Part shown: one piece after another, positions 17,062-54,026 of the stretch | Layout of the letters: every line of letters begins with the position of its first letter | Position numbering within the stretch: position 1 is the stretch's first letter | Origin: Terriglobales bacterium | GTDB lineage: Bacteria; Acidobacteriota; Terriglobia; Terriglobales; SCQP01 | Assembly (NCBI GenBank): GCA_050747745.1 | Contig: JBOGKM010000029.1 | Location: 8,993 to 72,992 of the forward strand | Reading direction: 5' to 3' | DNA length: 64,000 nt | The notes under the pieces: model-generated | What the model saw: the letters and a program-made list of their open reading frames with translations, nothing else | Database searches by the model: none | Told to the model about the DNA's origin: nothing | Translations under genes and position numbers: made by a program

Positions 17062-18090
17062 TTATAGGATCAGCATGCAGTCGCCGTAGCTGAGGAACCG
17101 GTAGCCGTTTTGGAGGGCATGCCGGTAAGCGTGGCGCACGCGATCCAGGCCGGCCAGGGCGGCGATCATCATCAACAGCGTGGTCTTGGGTGCGTGGAAG
17201 TTGGTCAGCAGTCCGTCCAGCGCGCGGAAGCTGTAGCCGGGGTAGATGTAAATACCCGTGGCGCCGCTGCTGGGCGCAAACTGGCTTCCGGCATCGGGCG
17301 CAATGGTTTCCAGCACGCGCGCGGCCGTGGTGCCCACGCCGATGATGCGCTTGCCCCGGCTGCGTGCGCGGTTCAACGCCGCCGCCGCCGCCGCGCTCAC
17401 CGCGTAGCGCTCGTGGTGCATGGGATGCTGCTCGATAGTCTCGCTGGTCACCGGCTGAAACGTGCCCAGCCCGACGTGTAAGCTGATCGTTGTCCATGCC
17501 ATGCCGCACGCCTTCAGGCGTTCCAGCACGCGCGCGCTGAAGTGGAGACCCGCAGTGGGCGCCGCCGCCGAGCCGGTCGCGCGCGCGTAGATGGTCTGGT
17601 AGCGCTCGTGATCCGCGGCCGCGTCCGGACGCCTGATATAGGGCGGCAGCGGCACGTGGCCGTGGATCTCGAGCCAGGCCGCAAGGCTGGGCACGCCGGA
17701 AAAGCGCAGCCGCCGCTCGCCGCGCTCACTCCGGCCCACGACCTCGGCGCGCAGCCCGGCGGCAAACGCCAGCTTCGTGCCCGGCGCGAGTTTACCGGCC
17801 GGCCGCGTCAGCGCCGTCCATTCCTCTGCCCCCACCTCCTCCAATAGCAGAATCTCGGCCTTGCCGCCGTCGGCGCGCTGGCCCAACAATCGCGCCGGAA
17901 ACACGCGTGACTCGTTGGCGACTAGCAAGTCACCGGGCGCGAGCAGTTCCGGCAGGTCGCGGAACTGCCGGTCTTCCAGATCTCCGTCCGTACGGCGCAG
18001 CACCAGCATGCGCGCCGCATCGCGTTCGGCGGGTGGCTGCTGGGCGATGCGCTCCGGCGGCAACTCGTAATCAAATTCGCTCAACTGCAT
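17062..18090 (-). CDS. queA: S-adenosylmethionine:tRNA ribosyltransferase-isomerase
   Basis: The canonical N-terminus 'MQLSEFDYELPPERIAQQP' starts at ATG 18090. 'GTTAARVLE' and 'LLTNFHAPKTTLLMMIAA' follow. The 111 codons upstream in the track ORF are shadow sequence overlapping the aldolase gene. Confidence 0.93.
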   Translation of the reverse strand: MQLSEFDYELPPERIAQQPPAERDAARMLVLRRTDGDLEDRQFRDLPELLAPGDLLVANESRVFPARLLGQRADGGKAEILLLEEVGAEEWTALTRPAGKLAPGTKLAFAAGLRAEVVGRSERGERRLRFSGVPSLAAWLEIHGHVPLPPYIRRPDAAADHERYQTIYARATGSAAAPTAGLHFSARVLERLKACGMAWTTISLHVGLGTFQPVTSETIEQHPMHHERYAVSAAAAAALNRARSRGKRIIGVGTTAARVLETIAPDAGSQFAPSSGATGIYIYPGYSFRALDGLLTNFHAPKTTLLMMIAALAGLDRVRHAYRHALQNGYRFLSYGDCMLIL

Positions 18091-18120
18091 CCGAGTTCCA
18101 GCATAGGCGATAATGTCGCC

Positions 18121-18894
18121 ATGGCGGACGAGCAGGCGCAAGAGATCGCGGCGCGGCAGGACATCTTGAGCATTGGTCGGTTTCTGCACCAGAAAAGCCT
18201 GGTGGCCGCCAGCGACGGCAACATCTCCGTGCGCCTGCCCGGTGAACGCATCCTGGCCACGCCCACCTCCATGAGCAAGGGCCTGATGCGGGACGAGGAT
18301 CTGGTCCTCACCGATCTGGAGGGCCACAAGCTGGCCGGCGCGCGCAACCCCTCCAGCGAAATGGCCATGCACCTGCTCATTTACCGCCTTCGACCGGAGG
18401 TCGGCGGCGTCGTGCATGCCCATCCGCCCGCCGCCACCGGCTTCGCCGCGGCCGGCATCCCGCTCAATCAGGCGCTGCTGGCCGAAGTCGTGCTAGCGCT
18501 GGGCTGCATTCCGCTCGCCGCCTACGGGACCACGGGTACGCCCGAGCTTTCCGCCACGCTGCGGCCGCTGATTCCGCATTACGATGCCATCCTGATGGCC
18601 AATCACGGCGTCGTCACCTACGGCGAGGATGTCTGGAAGGCCTATTTCAAGATGGAAACGGTAGAGCATTTCGCGCGTATCGCCCTGGTGACTCATTTGC
18701 TGGGCCGGCAGAACCTGCTCGGCCGCGAGGAAGTGGACAAGCTGATGCAGGCGCGCGAGCGCTACGAAGGCGTCTCCAGCGCCGCCGCAGTTTCGCCCGC
18801 GTGTCCGGTCACGCGCGAAGCCGACCCCCAGCCGCTCGCCGGGGCGGCAGCGGCGGCCGGCCCGAATTTTCCCGACGGCAAACGGCGCTGGTAA
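18121..18894 (+). CDS. Class II aldolase/adducin-family protein (fuculose-phosphate-aldolase-like) with a 40-aa C-terminal extension; first gene of the BMC operon
   Basis: 'ASDGNISVRL', 'SSEMAMHLLIY', 'GGVVHAHPPAATGFA' and 'ILMANHGVVTYGEDVWKAYFKMETVEHFA' give the metal-His and fold motifs of Aldolase_II. The tail 'VSSAAAVSPACPVTREADPQPLAGAAAAAGPNFPDGKRRW' lies beyond the fold. Confidence 0.88.
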   Translation: MADEQAQEIAARQDILSIGRFLHQKSLVAASDGNISVRLPGERILATPTSMSKGLMRDEDLVLTDLEGHKLAGARNPSSEMAMHLLIYRLRPEVGGVVHAHPPAATGFAAAGIPLNQALLAEVVLALGCIPLAAYGTTGTPELSATLRPLIPHYDAILMANHGVVTYGEDVWKAYFKMETVEHFARIALVTHLLGRQNLLGREEVDKLMQARERYEGVSSAAAVSPACPVTREADPQPLAGAAAAAGPNFPDGKRRW

Positions 18895-18918: not shown

Positions 18919-19224
18919 ATGGCGGACATCAGCGGCGAAGCGTGGGGCATGGTTGAAACCAAGGGGTTGGTGGCGATGATTGAAGCCGCCGACGCCATGG
19001 TGAAAGCGGCCAACGTCATTCTGGTCGGTTGGGAGAAAAAAATCGGCGCCGGCTACGTCACCGCCATCGTGCAAGGAGATGTGGCCGCCGTCAAAGCCGC
19101 CACCGAAGCGGGAGCGGCGGCGGCGCGACGCATCGGGGAAGTCCTCTCGGTGCATGTGATTCCCCGCCCGGCGGCCGGACTGTCGCGCGCGGTTCCGCTG
19201 CAGGGCCTTCCGCCCGGGGCCTGA
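18919..19224 (+). CDS. Bacterial microcompartment shell protein, BMC-H (PduA/EutM/CcmK-type hexamer)
   Basis: '[58 protein letters not shown]...[10 protein letters not shown]' is a near-canonical single BMC domain with the KIGAG pore loop. A GAGGAG Shine-Dalgarno lies 6 nt upstream. Confidence 0.93.
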
Positions 19225-19236
19225 GCCTGATCGCCC

Positions 19237-19506
19237 ATGCAGCTTGCCCGCGTTATCGGTACCGTGGTGGCCACGCGCAAGGATGCGCGCCTGGAAGGAT
19301 TCAAACTGCTGGTCGTGCGCCCGCAGACTGCCGCAGGCCAGGACGAGGCCGGTTATGTGGTCGCGGTGGACATGGTGGGCGCGGGCGCGGGCGAGCGCGT
19401 GCTCATCGTGCAGGGCAGCTCGGCGCGCATGGCGCGCGACGGGCAGGACAAACCCATTGATGCCGCCATCGTCGGCATCGTGGATACGGTCGAGCTGGTG
19501 AGGTAA
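19237..19506 (+). CDS. BMC vertex protein, BMC-P (EutN/CcmL family), paralog 1
   Basis: 'MQLARVIGTVVATRKDARLEGFKLLVV...AVDMVGAGAGERVLIVQGSSAR...PIDAAIVGIVD' is the typical EutN/CcmL pattern. Confidence 0.9.
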   Translation: MQLARVIGTVVATRKDARLEGFKLLVVRPQTAAGQDEAGYVVAVDMVGAGAGERVLIVQGSSARMARDGQDKPIDAAIVGIVDTVELVR

Positions 19507-19509
19507 GCC

Positions 19510-19800
19510 GTGTTCCTGGCTCGCGTGACCGGAACCGTTGTCGCCACCGTCAAGGATGCCGCCTTGCGCTCCCACAAGCTGCTTGTGGTCCAGCCGCTCG
19601 ATGCCGCCGCGGGGCCCGTGGGCCGCGAGTTGGTGGCGCTGGACGCGGTCGGCGCAGGCGCGGGTGAAATCGTCTACTGCTGCCGCGGCAAGGAAGCCAG
19701 CTTTCCCTGGTTGCCCGCCAGCGTACCCGCCGACGCCGCCATCGTGGGCATTGTGGATCCCGCTGCCAATCGCGACTGGCTGCTGGAGACGGCATCATGA
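19510..19800 (+). CDS. BMC vertex protein, BMC-P (EutN/CcmL family), paralog 2
   Basis: GTG start 3 nt after paralog 1. 'FLARVTGTVVATVKDAALRSHKLLVVQP...ALDAVGAGAGEIVYCCRG...ADAAIVGIVD'. Confidence 0.88.
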   Translation: MFLARVTGTVVATVKDAALRSHKLLVVQPLDAAAGPVGRELVALDAVGAGAGEIVYCCRGKEASFPWLPASVPADAAIVGIVDPAANRDWLLETAS

Positions 19801-20099
19801 TCGTCGGCCGCGTGACCGGCGAAGTGGTCGCCACCCAAAAACACGGCAGTCACCAGGGCCGCAAGCTGCTGCTGGTCGCTCCCGAAACGCTCGACTCCGG
19901 AACCCCGTTGCCGGCGCGCGGCACACCCGCCGGCGGCGCCGCCCTCATCGCGCTCGATGCCGTGGGTGCCGGTGTGGGCGAGCGCGTGCTCGTGGTGCTG
20001 GATGGCTACGCCGCCATGACCGCGGTCAGCCGCCCCATGTCGCCGATCGATGCCGCCGTGGTCGGCATCCTCGACCGTCTGGATCTGTCCACGCCATGA
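19797..20099 (+). CDS. BMC vertex protein, BMC-P (EutN/CcmL family), paralog 3
   Basis: ATGA overlap with paralog 2. 'MIVGRVTGEVVATQKHGSHQGRKLLLV...ALDAVGAGVGERVLVV...PIDAAVVGILD'. It carries a Pro/Gly-rich insert. Confidence 0.85.
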   Translation: MIVGRVTGEVVATQKHGSHQGRKLLLVAPETLDSGTPLPARGTPAGGAALIALDAVGAGVGERVLVVLDGYAAMTAVSRPMSPIDAAVVGILDRLDLSTP

Positions 20100-20692
20100 C
20101 CGGGCCCGCCGCGCCCATCGTCAACGTCGGCTACCGCTCCACGAATTATTGGCTGATCGGAGATGGCGATCGAAGATTGCTGCTGGATCTCGGCTGGCCC
20201 GGCTCCCTGGGCGCGATGCGCGCGGCGCTGCGCCGGGCCGGGGTAGCGCCGCAAGACATCGCCTACGGCTTGGCCACGCACTATCACATGGATCACGCCG
20301 GGCTGGGCGAAGAGCTGAAACAGTTCGGCATGCGGCTGTTGGTCGTCGATCTGCAACTCGCGGCGATCCCCGCCATGCGGGCCCACATTAAACCGCAAGA
20401 TCACTACGTTGAGATTGCGGATGCCGGCAATCTGGTGATTCCTGCTTCCGGCAGCCGGGCGTTGTTGGCGCAGATCGGCCTGGCGGGCGAAATTCTGCCC
20501 ACGCCGGGCCATAGCGACGACAGCGTATCGTTGCTGTTGGACGACGGATCGGTGTTTACCGGCGATCTGACCCCGCCCGCGATGGCCACCGAAGAGGAGG
20601 CGGCCACGGTCGCGGCGAGCTGGCAACTGCTACAGCAGCGCGGGGCACGCCGCTGCTATCCCGCCCACGGTCCAGTGCGTGCGCTGGCGTAG
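20096..20692 (+). CDS. MBL-fold metallo-hydrolase (small, about 198 aa), translationally coupled to the last BMC-P gene
   Basis: ATGA overlap at 20096-20099. 'NYWLIGDGDRRLLLDLGWPG', 'THYHMDHAG' (HxHxDH), 'TPGHSDDS' and 'FTGD' follow the metallo-beta-lactamase motif order. Confidence 0.85.
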   Translation: MTGPAAPIVNVGYRSTNYWLIGDGDRRLLLDLGWPGSLGAMRAALRRAGVAPQDIAYGLATHYHMDHAGLGEELKQFGMRLLVVDLQLAAIPAMRAHIKPQDHYVEIADAGNLVIPASGSRALLAQIGLAGEILPTPGHSDDSVSLLLDDGSVFTGDLTPPAMATEEEAATVAASWQLLQQRGARRCYPAHGPVRALA

Positions 20693-20714
20693 GGTTCCGC
20701 GCCGCAGGCGCCGT

Positions 20715-21098
20715 CTATCGTCGAAAAAACGGCTGCACGTGGCCGTGGCCCCGGGCGTTGAAGGTAATCTGCTCCATGGAATGGTAGATCGTCCCCTGTC
20801 CGCTGAACTCGCCCACCCCCAACATAAGGTCGCGGCCATCACTCATCGGCAGCACCACCCAGCGCCCCGAGCTCGGTTCTAGACCACGCGTGTAGGTCAA
20901 GAGCCTGACCGAGGATCCGCGCAGAGCGAACAGAAGACCAACTCCGCAATTCAGCAGGTGCGGTTCGCAGCCCGGGCCGGTGATCAGGAAATCGCGGCTG
21001 CTGGGCTTATGGAATGAGCCCGTCCAGGCGCTATCGAGCTCAAACGGACCGCTCCAGCTAAACCTTCCCGAGGTCGTGGACTGCCGCGGACACTGCAC
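20715..21098 (-). CDS. Hypothetical protein (127 aa) in a locally lower-GC patch
   Basis: GTG-start ORF with moderate GC3 bias and non-shadow-like composition. No motif recognised. Lies downstream of the bactofilin gene on the same strand. Confidence 0.35.
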   Translation of the reverse strand: MQCPRQSTTSGRFSWSGPFELDSAWTGSFHKPSSRDFLITGPGCEPHLLNCGVGLLFALRGSSVRLLTYTRGLEPSSGRWVVLPMSDGRDLMLGVGEFSGQGTIYHSMEQITFNARGHGHVQPFFRR

Positions 21099-21217
21099 GC
21101 ACCCTGTCGGCCGGCCGGCGCGGCTATGAGCACGCTGGTGTCCAGGGCAGATCTGCAGGAGAGTGGCAGTGAGGGTTGCTGTGGCTACAAGCGCCGCAGG
21201 CCCCCGGCTCCAGCCGC

Positions 21218-21709
21218 TCAGCTCGAGGACTTCGCTCCGGCGGTGGCTGCGACGCCGGCACCCTTGCGAATATCTATGCCGCCCTTGAAGAATGCGCCAT
21301 CTTCGATGCTGATGCGCGCCGCGCTCACGTCGCCGGTGAGCGCGCCCTGCGCCTTGATCTCCACTCGGTCGGCGGCGCTGATGTTCCCGTTCAGTTTGCC
21401 CAGAATGACCACCTCGCGGGCGTTCACGCTGGCCTGCACCTGCCCGTTGGCGCCGATGGTCAGCACGTTTTTGGGCAGGTCCACCGAACCTTCGAGCTTG
21501 CCGTCCACGAACAAATCCTCGTTGCCGGTGATGGTGCCCTTGAGTTGGATGGTCTTGCTCAAATGCGTGGCCCGGTCGCTGCCGCCGCTGCGCGGGGCAG
21601 GAGCGCTGACGCCGGCGGCCACGGGCGTGGCGGGCGGGTTGTTGGGTTGCGGTTTGGCCGGCGGTGCCGGAACCTCGCGTTCATTCTGCTTCCACATGGA
21701 CAACGGCAC
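21218..21709 (-). CDS. Bactofilin-family cytoskeletal protein
   Basis: Pro-rich N-terminus, then the beta-helical repeat core 'IQLKGTITGNEDLFVDGKLEGSV...TIGANGQVQASVNAREVVILGKLNGNISAADRVEIKAQGALTGDVSAARISIEDGAFFKGGIDI'. Confidence 0.88.
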   Translation of the reverse strand: MPLSMWKQNEREVPAPPAKPQPNNPPATPVAAGVSAPAPRSGGSDRATHLSKTIQLKGTITGNEDLFVDGKLEGSVDLPKNVLTIGANGQVQASVNAREVVILGKLNGNISAADRVEIKAQGALTGDVSAARISIEDGAFFKGGIDIRKGAGVAATAGAKSSS

Positions 21710-51494: not shown

Positions 51495-54026
51495 CTAATT
51501 CACGAGTGGTGGCTGGTCGGCGTTGCCGTTGGCTTCCGCTTCTTCCGGGGGCAGGACGCTGGCGGCGGCGACCTGGTCGCCCTCCTCCAGGCGCAAGATG
51601 CGCACGCCCTGGCTGGCGCGGCCGACTTCGCGGATTGAGCTGCTGCCGCAGCGGATGATCTTGCCCTGCTGGGAAATGATCATCACCTCGGGAGCCTCGC
51701 TCACCGCCATTACCGCCACCACTTTGCCGTTGCGGGCGGTGGTTTTCAGGTTGATCACGCCCGAGCCGCCGCGCGACTGCAGCCGGTACTCGGAAAGGGA
51801 AGTGCGCTTGCCGTAGCCGCCTTCGGTGACGCTGAGGATGAGCTGACCGGGGTCGCTGGCCACTTCCATGCCCACGATGAAGTCGCCTTCGTCCAGCCGC
51901 ATGCCGCGCACGCCCGCCGCGGTACGGCCCATCGAGCGCACACCCGATTCCGGGAAGCGAATGCTCTGGCCCTCGTGTGTGGCCAGGAAGATTTCACTCC
52001 TGCCGTCGCTGAGGTTGGCGTTCACCAGCTCGTCGCCCTTATCCACACCCATGGCGATGATGCCGCGCGCCATGGGATTGGAGAAGTCCTGGACACGGGT
52101 TTTCTTGATTGTGCCCTGGCGCGTGACCATGACAATGAATTCGTTCTGGCTTTCCAGACCCTTGATGGGCAGCATTGAGCGCATTTCCTCGCCCGGTTGC
52201 AGCGCCACCAGGCTCTGCACCGCCTTGCCCTTGCTGGCCGCGCCGGCGTCTGGAATTTCATAAACCTTGAGCCAGTACACGCGGCCGGTGTTCGTAAACA
52301 CCAGGATGTAGCTGTGGGTGGAGGAGACGAACAGATGCTCCACGAAATCCTCTTCGCGCGTGCCCGCGCCGCGCCGCCCGCTGCCGCCGCGGCGCTGTTG
52401 GCGGTAGGTGGAAATCGGCGTGCGCTTGAGATAGCCGGAATGGGTGACGGTGATGGCGACGGTTTCTTCCTTGATGAGATCCTCGAGCGCGATTTCCGCC
52501 ACCGCTTCCTGGATTTCGGTGCGGCGCGGATCCTTGTCGCCGCCGTAGTTCTTGCGGATTTCCTTGAGTTCATCGGCAATCGCGCCGCGCAGTTTCTTGT
52601 CGCTGGCCAGAATGGATTCCAACTCGGCGATGAGCTTGCGGATTTCGTTCATCTCGTCGAGAATCTTCTGTTGCTCCATGCCGGTGAGCCGGTGCAATTG
52701 CAGATCGAGGATGGCCTGCGCCTGCCGCTCGGTGAGCTCGAAGCGCGCCACCAGGCCCTCGCGCGCCTCGCGCGGACTGGACGAAGCGCGGATCAGCTTG
52801 ATGACCGCGTCGAGATGATCGAGGGCAATCTTGTAGCCCTCCAACACATGTTCGCGCTCGCGCGCCTTGCGCAGCTCGAACAGGCTGCGGCGGCGCACCA
52901 CGTCCACCCGGTGATCGAGGAAGAGCTGGATGGCCTGGCTCAGGCCCAACTCGCGCGGCTGGCCGTTGACCACCGCCAGCAGGATCATGCCAAAACTGGA
53001 CTGCAGCGCAGTGTGTTTATAAAGCTGATTGAGGATCAGCTCCGGCTGTTCGCCGCGCTTGAGCTCGAGCACGACCCGCATGCCGTCGCGGTCGCTTTCG
53101 TCGCGAATGTCGCCGATTCCTTCAATGCGTTTTTCCTGTACCAGCTCGGCCATCCGCTCGATCAGGCGCGCCTTGTTCACCTGGTAGGGAATTTCGGTGA
53201 CGACGATGGCCTTGCGGTCTTTGCCGACGTTTTCGGTGGCGGCGCGGGCGCGGACGACGAACGAGCCGCGTCCGGTGGCGTAGGCCTGGGCGATGCCGCC
53301 GTTGCCGAAAATGATGCCGCCAGTCGGGAAATCCGGTCCCTTCACATGCTGCATCAGATCGGCCAGGGAGGCCTTGGGATTGCGCAGCAGCTCGAGCGAG
53401 GCATCGAGGATTTCGGTCAGGTTGTGGGGTGGAATCTTAGTCGCCATGCCGACGGCAATGCCATCGGAACCGTTGATGAGCAGGTTGGGAATGCGGGTGG
53501 GCAACACCAGCGGTTCCTGCGTGGATTCATCGAAATTGGGCGCCATGTCCACGGTGTCCTTGTCGATGTCACGCAGCATTTCCTCGGCGATTTTCGTGAG
53601 CCGGGCTTCGGTGTAGCGATAGGCTGCGGGCGGATCCCCGTCCACCGAACCGAAATTGCCCTGACCATCCACCAACAGGTAGCGCAGGTTGAAATCCTGC
53701 GCCATGCGCACCAGCGCGTCGTATACAGGCGCATCGCCGTGAGGATGATACTTCTTGAGCACTTCGCCCACCACGCCGGCGCACTTCGAGAATTTCTTAT
53801 TCGAAAGCAGACCTTCGCTGTACATGGCGTAGAGAATGCGCCGATGCACCGGCTTGAGGCCGTCGCGCACATCGGGCAGGGCACGGCCGACGATGACCGA
53901 CATGGCGTAGTCGAGATACGAGCGCCGCATCTCGTCTTCGATGTTGACGGGCTGGTAGGGCTTGCCCACGGGCGGTTCGTTGCCGCCACCGGCGGGAAGT
54001 GGAAGCTGGTTCTCATCATCAGGCAT
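51495..54026 (-). CDS. gyrA: DNA gyrase subunit A
   Basis: '[32 protein letters not shown]', 'HPHGD' and '[10 protein letters not shown]' (catalytic Tyr region). C-terminal beta-pinwheel repeats with a GyrA-box-like '[10 protein letters not shown]'. Confidence 0.97.

Follow-up and report, generated by a model that had tools for sequence, protein, structure and literature searches.

Bacterial microcompartment (BMC) loci that carry three genes for vertex pentamers (BMC-P) have been catalogued as having a BMC-P triplet, made up of one grey, one orange and one green, blue or purple member (Sutter et al. 2021, Nat Commun, PMC8217296). The triplet was recorded in ACI, HO, PVM, SPU and FRAG loci, its multiplicity was termed unexpected, and Supplementary Data 6 of the catalog distinguishes the classes 'standard pentamer', 'special pentamer 1' and 'special pentamer 2' (PMC8217296). 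According to a 2024 paper, the reason for multiple BMC-P paralogs 'remains unknown' (PMC11585597). The system studied here is a tandem of three BMC-P genes, P1, P2 and P3, in a short operon of a Terriglobales bacterium (contig JBOGKM010000029.1, assembly GCA_050747745.1); the whole 64-kb stretch of DNA that was analysed (65% GC) is called the window. P1, P2 and P3 are three ancient orthogroups with a fixed order, all under purifying selection, and, as judged by alignment, they differ most sharply at the lumen-side pore-rim motif while sharing the motif for docking to hexamers. The three-pentamer pattern itself, to which a first-pass annotation of the window had drawn attention, is not new but the already described BMC-P triplet (PMC8217296).

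The ACI type of locus is acidobacterial and found mainly in Subdivisions 4 and 6. Its aldolase belongs to PF00596 and bears an encapsulation peptide at the C-terminus; the locus further encodes a 2-hydroxyacid dehydrogenase, a hexamer shell protein (BMC-H), an adjacent triplet and three unknown proteins, one of them small and rich in cysteine, and an aldehyde dehydrogenase (AldDh) lies on a satellite locus (PMC8217296, Supplementary Data 2). The operon in the window agreed with this type in its acidobacterial host (the database sources read 'Terriglobales bacterium'), its PF00596 aldolase, its single BMC-H and its adjacent triplet, and in the KAA lysine and RP motif of the BMC-H, the latter here IPRPA rather than PRPH. 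The aldolase is the signature enzyme of ACI- and PVM-type microcompartments. Orthologs of the aldolase and shell proteins, 45-86% identical, occurred in loci of Blastocatellia and Vicinamibacteria, and some of these loci also encode the small cysteine-rich protein of ACI or the 2-hydroxyacid dehydrogenase. In most related loci the aldolase ortholog is found upstream of the triplet. The operon differed from ACI in its Terriglobales host, in an appended gene for a metallo-beta-lactamase (MBL)-fold hydrolase, and in an aldolase with PxGKRRW at its end and no helical encapsulation peptide.

No 2-hydroxyacid dehydrogenase (PF00389/PF02826) was found in the window by Pfam annotation or tblastn, and one was near the triplet in only five fetched loci (L006, L026, L029, L036 and L079). 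The small cysteine-rich protein was not found in the window by tblastn and was also missing from the window's clade. Pfam annotation of the window's called genes and large open reading frames (ORFs) gave no AldDh, no phosphotransacylase (PTAC) and no other shell gene. Because the helical peptide, the 2-hydroxyacid dehydrogenase and the cysteine-rich protein were each looked for and not found, the locus is called ACI-like and reduced, and not a strict ACI member. The small ACI protein, with the pattern C-x(7-9)-C-D-x-C-x-x-C-x-x-(R/L)-G-F (C..CDHC..C..RGF), was encoded just after P3 in 14 loci, mostly of Blastocatellia/Pyrinomonadaceae, with two labelled Clostridia (L019, L032, L047, L049, L054, L055, L062, L063, L065, L067, L077, L080, L082 and L085).

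The PVM loci of Planctomycetes and Verrucomicrobia contain the pentamers PvmH, PvmK and PvmM, the aldolase PvmN, AldDh, PTAC, acetate kinase, a lactate/malate-type dehydrogenase, a DeoR regulator and two BMC-H (PMC4207490, PMC11346464). Compared by these described features, the window had only the aldolase and one BMC-H of the PVM set, and the locus is not PVM. With the catalogued triplet it shared three divergent BMC-P genes in one locus, one of them standard (with GSSAR, near CcmL and the shell pentamer from Haliangium ochraceum (HO)), and the adjacency of the genes, which is almost always observed for the ACI triplet in the catalog (PMC8217296). Nothing essential differed between the two, although the contrast in pore motif between orthogroups is not mentioned in the consulted portions of that paper (PMC8217296). 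CsoS4A and CsoS4B of the alpha-carboxysome are similar in that more than one BMC-P paralog is conserved per locus for only 12 vertices, but they are a pair and not a triplet, and their similarity to P1-P3 was weak (E 1e-4 to 1e-8).

The first-pass annotation had described three tandem, translationally coupled EutN/CcmL genes, clearly diverged, next to a single hexamer gene, and on all of these points it was borne out. The ORFs had the expected lengths (Table 1), and the PF03319 (EutN_CcmL) matches were full-length (model positions 1-83 of 83), with 110, 95.3 and 78.5 bits for P1, P2 and P3, respectively, and a cut-off of 25. As read in the sequence, the P1-P2 junction is a 3-nt gap (TAA-gcc-GTG) and the P2-P3 junction an ATGA overlap; a second ATGA overlap couples P3 to the MBL gene. 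Pairwise identity was 55% between P1 and P2, and 45% both between P1 and P3 and between P2 and P3. In the whole window, tblastn gave one BMC-H and no BMC-H or BMC-P beyond these four genes. The three peptides quoted for the paralogs (IVYCCRGKEASFPWLP, PAANRDWLLETAS and ETLDSGTPLPARGTPAGG) were all found in the translations.

A genome scan with alignment of P2 orthologs gave 80 loci, and metagenome and neighbourhood loci added later brought the total to about 120 (designated L). The scanned loci were mainly from Acidobacteriota (Terriglobia, Bryobacterales, Blastocatellia/Pyrinomonadaceae and Vicinamibacteria), with a few from Acidimicrobiia and from metagenome-assembled genomes (MAGs) of Bacillota/Clostridia. 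Of 87 loci, 72 had a tandem of three BMC-P genes in which the middle one was of the P2 type. With classification by hidden Markov models into the orthogroups G1, G2 and G3 (those of P1, P2 and P3), 89 loci had the order G1-G2-G3 and a further 22 had G2-G3, some of them cut by contig ends; the G2 and G3 lineages nearly always occurred together, being adjacent in 111 of 119 loci. Mean identity was 0.66, 0.58 and 0.55 within the three position classes and 0.39-0.43 between them, and the nearest relative outside its own locus belonged to the same position class for every protein (210/210). A neighbour-joining tree built from 25 diverse loci separated the three classes into splits of their own, with bootstrap values of 97.5, 99 and 70%. 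Ratios of nonsynonymous to synonymous substitution (dN/dS) within the window's clade were 0.05-0.16 for P1, 0.15-0.29 for P2 and 0.12-0.25 for P3, similar to those of the BMC-H and the aldolase.

These results bear directly on whether the three genes are redundant recent duplicates or decaying copies of which one is functional. In favour of redundancy there is only the general argument that 12 vertices need one pentamer gene. The paralogs were 45-55% identical to each other, whereas a database search found P2 orthologs in other Terriglobales MAGs that were up to 84% identical to P2; the reading frames are intact, the BMC-P fold is predicted for P2 and P3, dN/dS was 0.05-0.29, and the gene order is conserved over several acidobacterial classes and a few Actinomycetota and Bacillota MAGs. 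Identity, conserved order, dN/dS, intact frames and predicted fold exclude a recent redundant duplication, and the reading as a whole, decaying copies included, is extremely improbable. The first-pass annotation had taken the paralogs to be old and non-redundant and not near-identical recent duplicates, and this part of its interpretation stood, as did the fold predicted for P2 and P3. The pattern is a published one, and the features singled out in P2 and P3 carry less weight than it gave them.

One fetched locus, L003 (GCA_974122065.1, CDBHFJ010000078.1, 1-2400), was a perfect mosaic of the window and L002. It was 99-100% identical to the window through the end of P1 (window position ~19491) and then 100% identical to L002 from P2, and the switch point sits in a conserved stretch. 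L003 is either an assembly chimera of two co-occurring strains or the product of a very recent recombination.

By sequence similarity P1 is the most canonical paralog, a standard pentamer, and its best solved relatives were CcmL (2qw7, E = 1e-20) and the HO shell pentamer (5v74, E = 1e-19). For P2 and P3, retention of the BMC-P fold is predicted. Their AlphaFold2 models had pLDDT values of 80.5 and 82.5, respectively, and both contained a five-stranded barrel. The top Foldseek matches were EutN, GrpN and CcmL for P2 (E ~3e-8) and CcmL, EutN and GrpN for P3, and at least the top 40 matches of either model were all BMC-P pentamer subunits, including the HO pentamer, with TM scores of 0.7-0.85.

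All three paralogs kept the GAGxGE motif, as GAGAGE in P1 and P2 and GAGVGE in P3. A 2026 review, citing shell structures, places this type of motif at the pentamer-hexamer interface together with an Arg and a Lys of BMC-H (PMC13370225), and the BMC-H of the window carried both interface residues, in its RP motif and its KAA lysine. At the other motif of interest the orthogroups diverged. In most BMC-P a GS motif lines the rim of the pore, with a small helix after it, and the funnel-shaped pore tapers to about 4 Å where it reaches the inner surface (GRM2 shell paper, PMC6971018). Residues were counted at the pore-motif columns over 70 triplets, the columns being assigned by alignment to standard pentamers and by the published description. 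P1 had the standard motif without variation among its orthologs (Table 1). P2 orthologs had the consensus RG(K/R)EASFP, with R in 66, G in 70, K or R in 69, E in 70, F in 69 and P in 68 of the 70, and the (K/R)EA hallmark was retained even in P2-like proteins only 38-49% identical; the hallmark loop was of low confidence in the AlphaFold2 model. P3, which also carries a VATQK motif, had after the pore-motif glycine an aromatic residue (W, F or Y) in 53 and a basic one in 16 of the 70 orthologs.

The peptide IVYCCRGKEASFPWLP had been presented as a peculiarity of paralog 2. Because RG(K/R)EASFP is near-invariant in 70 orthologs and (K/R)EA is kept in distant P2-like proteins, it is instead a signature of the whole P2 orthogroup, located by the alignment at the lumen-side pore rim. 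For P3, a described parallel is the GRM2 pentamer CmcD (6qn1), in which an aromatic residue at the pore motif lines the narrow, lumen-side pore end with a hydrophobic ring (PMC6971018) and with which G-(W/F/Y) of P3 was aligned at that position. CmcD differs in being the sole pentamer of its own locus and in a five-residue deletion that removes the small helix, whereas P3 keeps a predicted helix (residues 70-76) and belongs to another clade.

Taken with the fold predictions, the motifs are best explained if this region encodes the shell module of a small operon of ACI-like type, in which P1-P3, as an ancient triplet, would each assemble as a separate homopentamer, with all three kinds at vertices of one shell; a probability of roughly 0.55 is given to this reading. 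P1 would be the standard vertex pentamer, and P2 and P3 would represent the two 'special pentamer' lineages. The vertices would then differ in their axial pores and lumen faces, one being neutral or standard, one charged and one aromatic or plugged. The ribosome-binding sites, as read from the sequence, comprised a strong GAGGAG before BMC-H and weak or coupled starts at the P genes, and would fit an excess of hexamers over pentamers. On this reading the loop insert of P3 and the tail of P2 would be surface decorations of one clade.

Several points weigh against three kinds of homopentameric vertex. Homopentamers and vertex occupancy are read from sequence and monomer models, and the pore motifs were mapped by alignment and published description and not on coordinates. 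Twelve vertices seem too few for three pentamer species. The basic residue in 16 of 70 P3 orthologs means that an 'aromatic plug' is not universal. Profile scores of the two special pentamers against the one solved grey-clade protein, MSM0273 (5l37), were 38.5 against 31.8 bits, too close to tell which of P2 and P3 is the grey and which the orange member.

The constant company of the three genes could also mean that P1-P3 co-assemble as heteropentamers and form one composite vertex and not three kinds. The genes are always together and adjacent, they are tightly coupled here (3-nt gap, ATGA) and overlap by 4 nt in L002, L006, L122 and L124, and hetero-hexamers of CcmK paralogs are documented, mixed oligomers of BMC-P not having been examined in the literature (PMC10681173). 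Yet each orthogroup fixes its own pore-rim residues, which most readily suggests a homomeric five-fold ring, since the pore would be scrambled in a mixed one; five positions are not symmetrically fillable by three subunit types; the distance from gene to gene differs among loci and reaches 1 kb; and every BMC-P structure named among the search matches was described as a single protein. Co-assembly is accordingly judged rather unlikely, and separate homopentamers are preferred.

Two-domain BMC-P proteins, if genuine, would bear on how the paralogs associate. Four database proteins of 159-172 aa (P0025, P0027, P0114 and P0323) join P1-like and P2-like or P2-like and P3-like domains. In P0027 and P0114 the joined domains are truncated, which suggests deletions or errors of assembly, and none of the four was used as 'Rosetta-stone' evidence for heteromers.

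The other features to which the first-pass annotation had drawn attention, a Pro/Gly insert in P3 and a C-terminal tail in P2, proved to be variable in length, poorly conserved and restricted to one clade, and are therefore weak candidates for docking. The P3 loop expansion TLDSGTPLPARGTPAGGAA lies between the second and third strands of the model (pLDDT ~65). The length added varies from 3 to 14 residues among orthologs, and disorder is predicted for the insert. It was present in seven P3 proteins of the fetched loci (L095, on a contig without aldolase, and six loci whose aldolase ends in GKRRW) and in about 37 further database proteins, all of one Terriglobales clade, and every other P3 lacked it. 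The P2 tail (DPAAN..W..), a short helix in the model, was limited to the same clade, and elsewhere the tail tolerates an extension of ~100 residues from a repeat element. Both look like relaxed surface features and not precise docking sites. The repeat element is GC-rich and occurs twice in L127 (5358-5848 and 6690-7004; also in L126 and L128), with three collinear segments that are 88-98% identical; the first copy lies in the spacer between aldolase and BMC-H, which is 490 nt long there against 24 nt in the window, and the second lies inside the 3' end of P2, giving a P2 of 188 aa with a Pro/Gly/Ala-rich tail.

The same clade also differed in its aldolase. The aldolases of 54 related loci end in a helical encapsulation peptide (..LTR.EL.ALV.EAV..), whereas in the window, L002/L123, L094, L122, L124/L125 and L126-L128 the helix is missing and the protein ends in [FLW]P[DHN]GKRRW behind an Ala/Pro-rich linker. 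In the window the tail peptide is AAGPNFPDGKRRW. A hidden helical peptide downstream of the aldolase was rejected, there being no room in the 24 nt that remain before the start of BMC-H. Among the ORFs of the window and the fetched loci no further cargo ending in (K/R)(K/R)RW was found except for a 99-residue ORF of L061, which is arginine-rich and was judged spurious.

Loci with the GKRRW tail coincided exactly with those that have the P3 insert: the insert was found in 6 of 6 fetched GKRRW-aldolase loci, and also in the later L126-L128, but in 0 of the 54 helical-peptide loci. Such a pattern could arise if P2, P3 or both had mainly a lumen-side or assembly role, docking cargo at the vertices, nucleating the core or setting shell size, with the P3 insert as a possible partner of PxGKRRW. 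The paralog-specific sequence does lie at the lumen-side end of the pentamer, and an additional function of the extra paralogs has been suggested by other authors (PMC8217296, PMC11585597). Against this, tail and insert both mark one clade, so that their co-occurrence counts as a single evolutionary event and not as a correlation; the insert, of variable sequence and length and predicted to be disordered, is unlike a specific binding site; and GAGxGE is kept in all three paralogs, as expected of shell-resident proteins. A mainly lumen-side role is thus rather unlikely, and three vertex homopentamers continue to be preferred. The narrower proposal that PxGKRRW replaced the encapsulation helix and docks on a special pentamer, attaching cargo at the vertex, is suggested by these sequences and is considered decidedly unlikely. 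A weaker form of it supposes only that the three pentamers may give vertices with different pores (neutral, charged, aromatic), one of them suited to phosphorylated substrates.

Table 1. Coordinates of the genes, motifs and flanking features of the operon in the window.
Feature	Position (nt)	Strand	Description
queA, flank	17062..18090	-	PF02547 E = 4.5e-127; divergent, 30-nt intergenic region
Class II aldolase, first operon gene	18121..18894	+	257 aa; PF00596 E = 3.6e-46
Aldolase C-terminal peptide NFPDGKRRW	18865..18891	+	Occupies the place of the helical encapsulation peptide
BMC-H hexamer shell protein	18919..19224	+	101 aa; PF00936 E = 2.9e-27; GAGGAG Shine-Dalgarno upstream
BMC-P paralog 1 (P1), orthogroup G1	19237..19506	+	89 aa; ATG start; PF03319 E = 8e-32
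P1 pore motif GSSAR	19414-19428	+	Residues 60-64; invariant in 70/70 orthologs
BMC-P paralog 2 (P2), orthogroup G2	19510..19800	+	96 aa; GTG start; PF03319 E = 3e-27
P2 hallmark RGKEASFPWLP	19684..19716	+	Residues 59-69; replaces GS pore-rim motif and small helix by a Pro-rich loop (by alignment)
BMC-P paralog 3 (P3), orthogroup G3	19797..20099	+	100 aa; ATG start; PF03319 E = 5.5e-22
P3 loop expansion	19887..19943	+	Residues 31-49; Ala/Gly/Pro-rich insert of the Terriglobales clade
P3 pore motif DGY	within 20001-20021	+	Residues 69-71; orthogroup pattern (E/D)-G-(W/F/Y)
MBL-fold hydrolase	20096..20692	+	198 aa; PF00753 E = 8.6e-16; ATGA overlap with P3
Unannotated spacer	20693..21217		525 bp; part of the MBL insertion; no called gene
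Bactofilin, flank	21218..21697	-	PF04519 E = 1.8e-24; convergent with the operon, thiL beyond

The operon runs from the class II aldolase through BMC-H, P1, P2 and P3 to the MBL-fold hydrolase and is flanked by the housekeeping genes queA, bactofilin and thiL (Table 1). Given the shadow ORFs of high-GC DNA, the evidence on neighbouring genes comes from targeted searches and a few clear clusters. The closest NCBIfam models of the aldolase were FucA, AraD and their relatives, all under the cut-off. queA had the same position in L002, L122-L124 and L126-L128 and serves as the synteny anchor of the Terriglobales clade. Bactofilin was the same neighbour in L002, L004, L122, L123 and L126-L128, in L004 even without an adjacent aldolase, and its adjacency may be plain synteny.

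Relative to L002, blastn showed a 1.1-kb insertion in the window (20096-21217), made up of the MBL gene and the spacer behind it. The MBL gene is probably co-transcribed with P3, and the ATGA overlap implies co-translation, which would fit a new cargo or accessory enzyme, for example a glyoxalase-II-like thioesterase that recycles a thiol cofactor without PTAC. Some resemblance to hydroxyacylglutathione hydrolase was also seen, though it was weak and far under the cut-off (TIGR03413, E = 6e-6), and no PTAC occurred among the Pfam-annotated genes of the window. The gene, however, was found in 1 of ~120 loci and was absent from the other fetched ones, even from close relatives that share the queA-bactofilin synteny. 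Its nearest homologs (78% identity) adjoin an aldo-keto reductase and no BMC genes; the family, of ~200 aa, is widespread, the best database matches being 64-78% identical and their few named sources spanning several phyla. The protein has no N- or C-terminal extension to serve as an encapsulation peptide, and the site downstream of P3 is a variable junction, occupied by bactofilin, a PIN-RHH toxin-antitoxin pair or the MBL gene. Absence elsewhere and the BMC-free neighbourhoods of its homologs rule the MBL gene out as a conserved microcompartment component; a role as cargo in this lineage is very doubtful, and the gene is treated as a recent lineage-specific hitch-hiker.

The spacer had no Rfam match and contained a 127-aa minus-strand ORF without Pfam match and a terminator-like hairpin (20746-20729, minus strand). 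No RNA element or riboswitch was found around the operon with Rfam (E up to 0.1), and promoter and terminator scans of the operon gave nothing above chance. In the 30 nt between the start codons of queA and the aldolase (18091-18120), a GATAAT (18109-18114) lies 6 nt before the aldolase ATG; the aldolase start has no Shine-Dalgarno sequence, and the position of GATAAT would fit a leaderless transcript. The window matches contig CCXETJ010000077.1 (077) of GCA_973402415.1 and extends into contig 039 of that assembly; mapped onto the window, the two overlapped by ~357 bp (window ~51678-52034) inside gyrA (51495-54026, minus strand), so that a longer assembly of this organism is the apparent source of the window.

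What is added here is the contrast in pore motif, an encapsulation peptide that has been replaced within one clade of Terriglobales, and the very compact operon; if none of these points holds, the locus is one more example of a catalogued pattern. Why twelve vertices should have three pentamer genes is an acknowledged open question (PMC8217296, PMC11585597), for which this operon, with one enzyme, one hexamer and three pentamer genes in a single coupled unit, is about the smallest natural test bed, and orthogroups that share a docking motif and, by alignment, differ at the lumen-side pore motif provide a lead. Docking of PxGKRRW on a special pentamer, if true, would be a new kind of microcompartment targeting signal and the first assigned function for extra BMC-P paralogs, and the peptide replacement, if functional, would give more tags for engineering synthetic shells.

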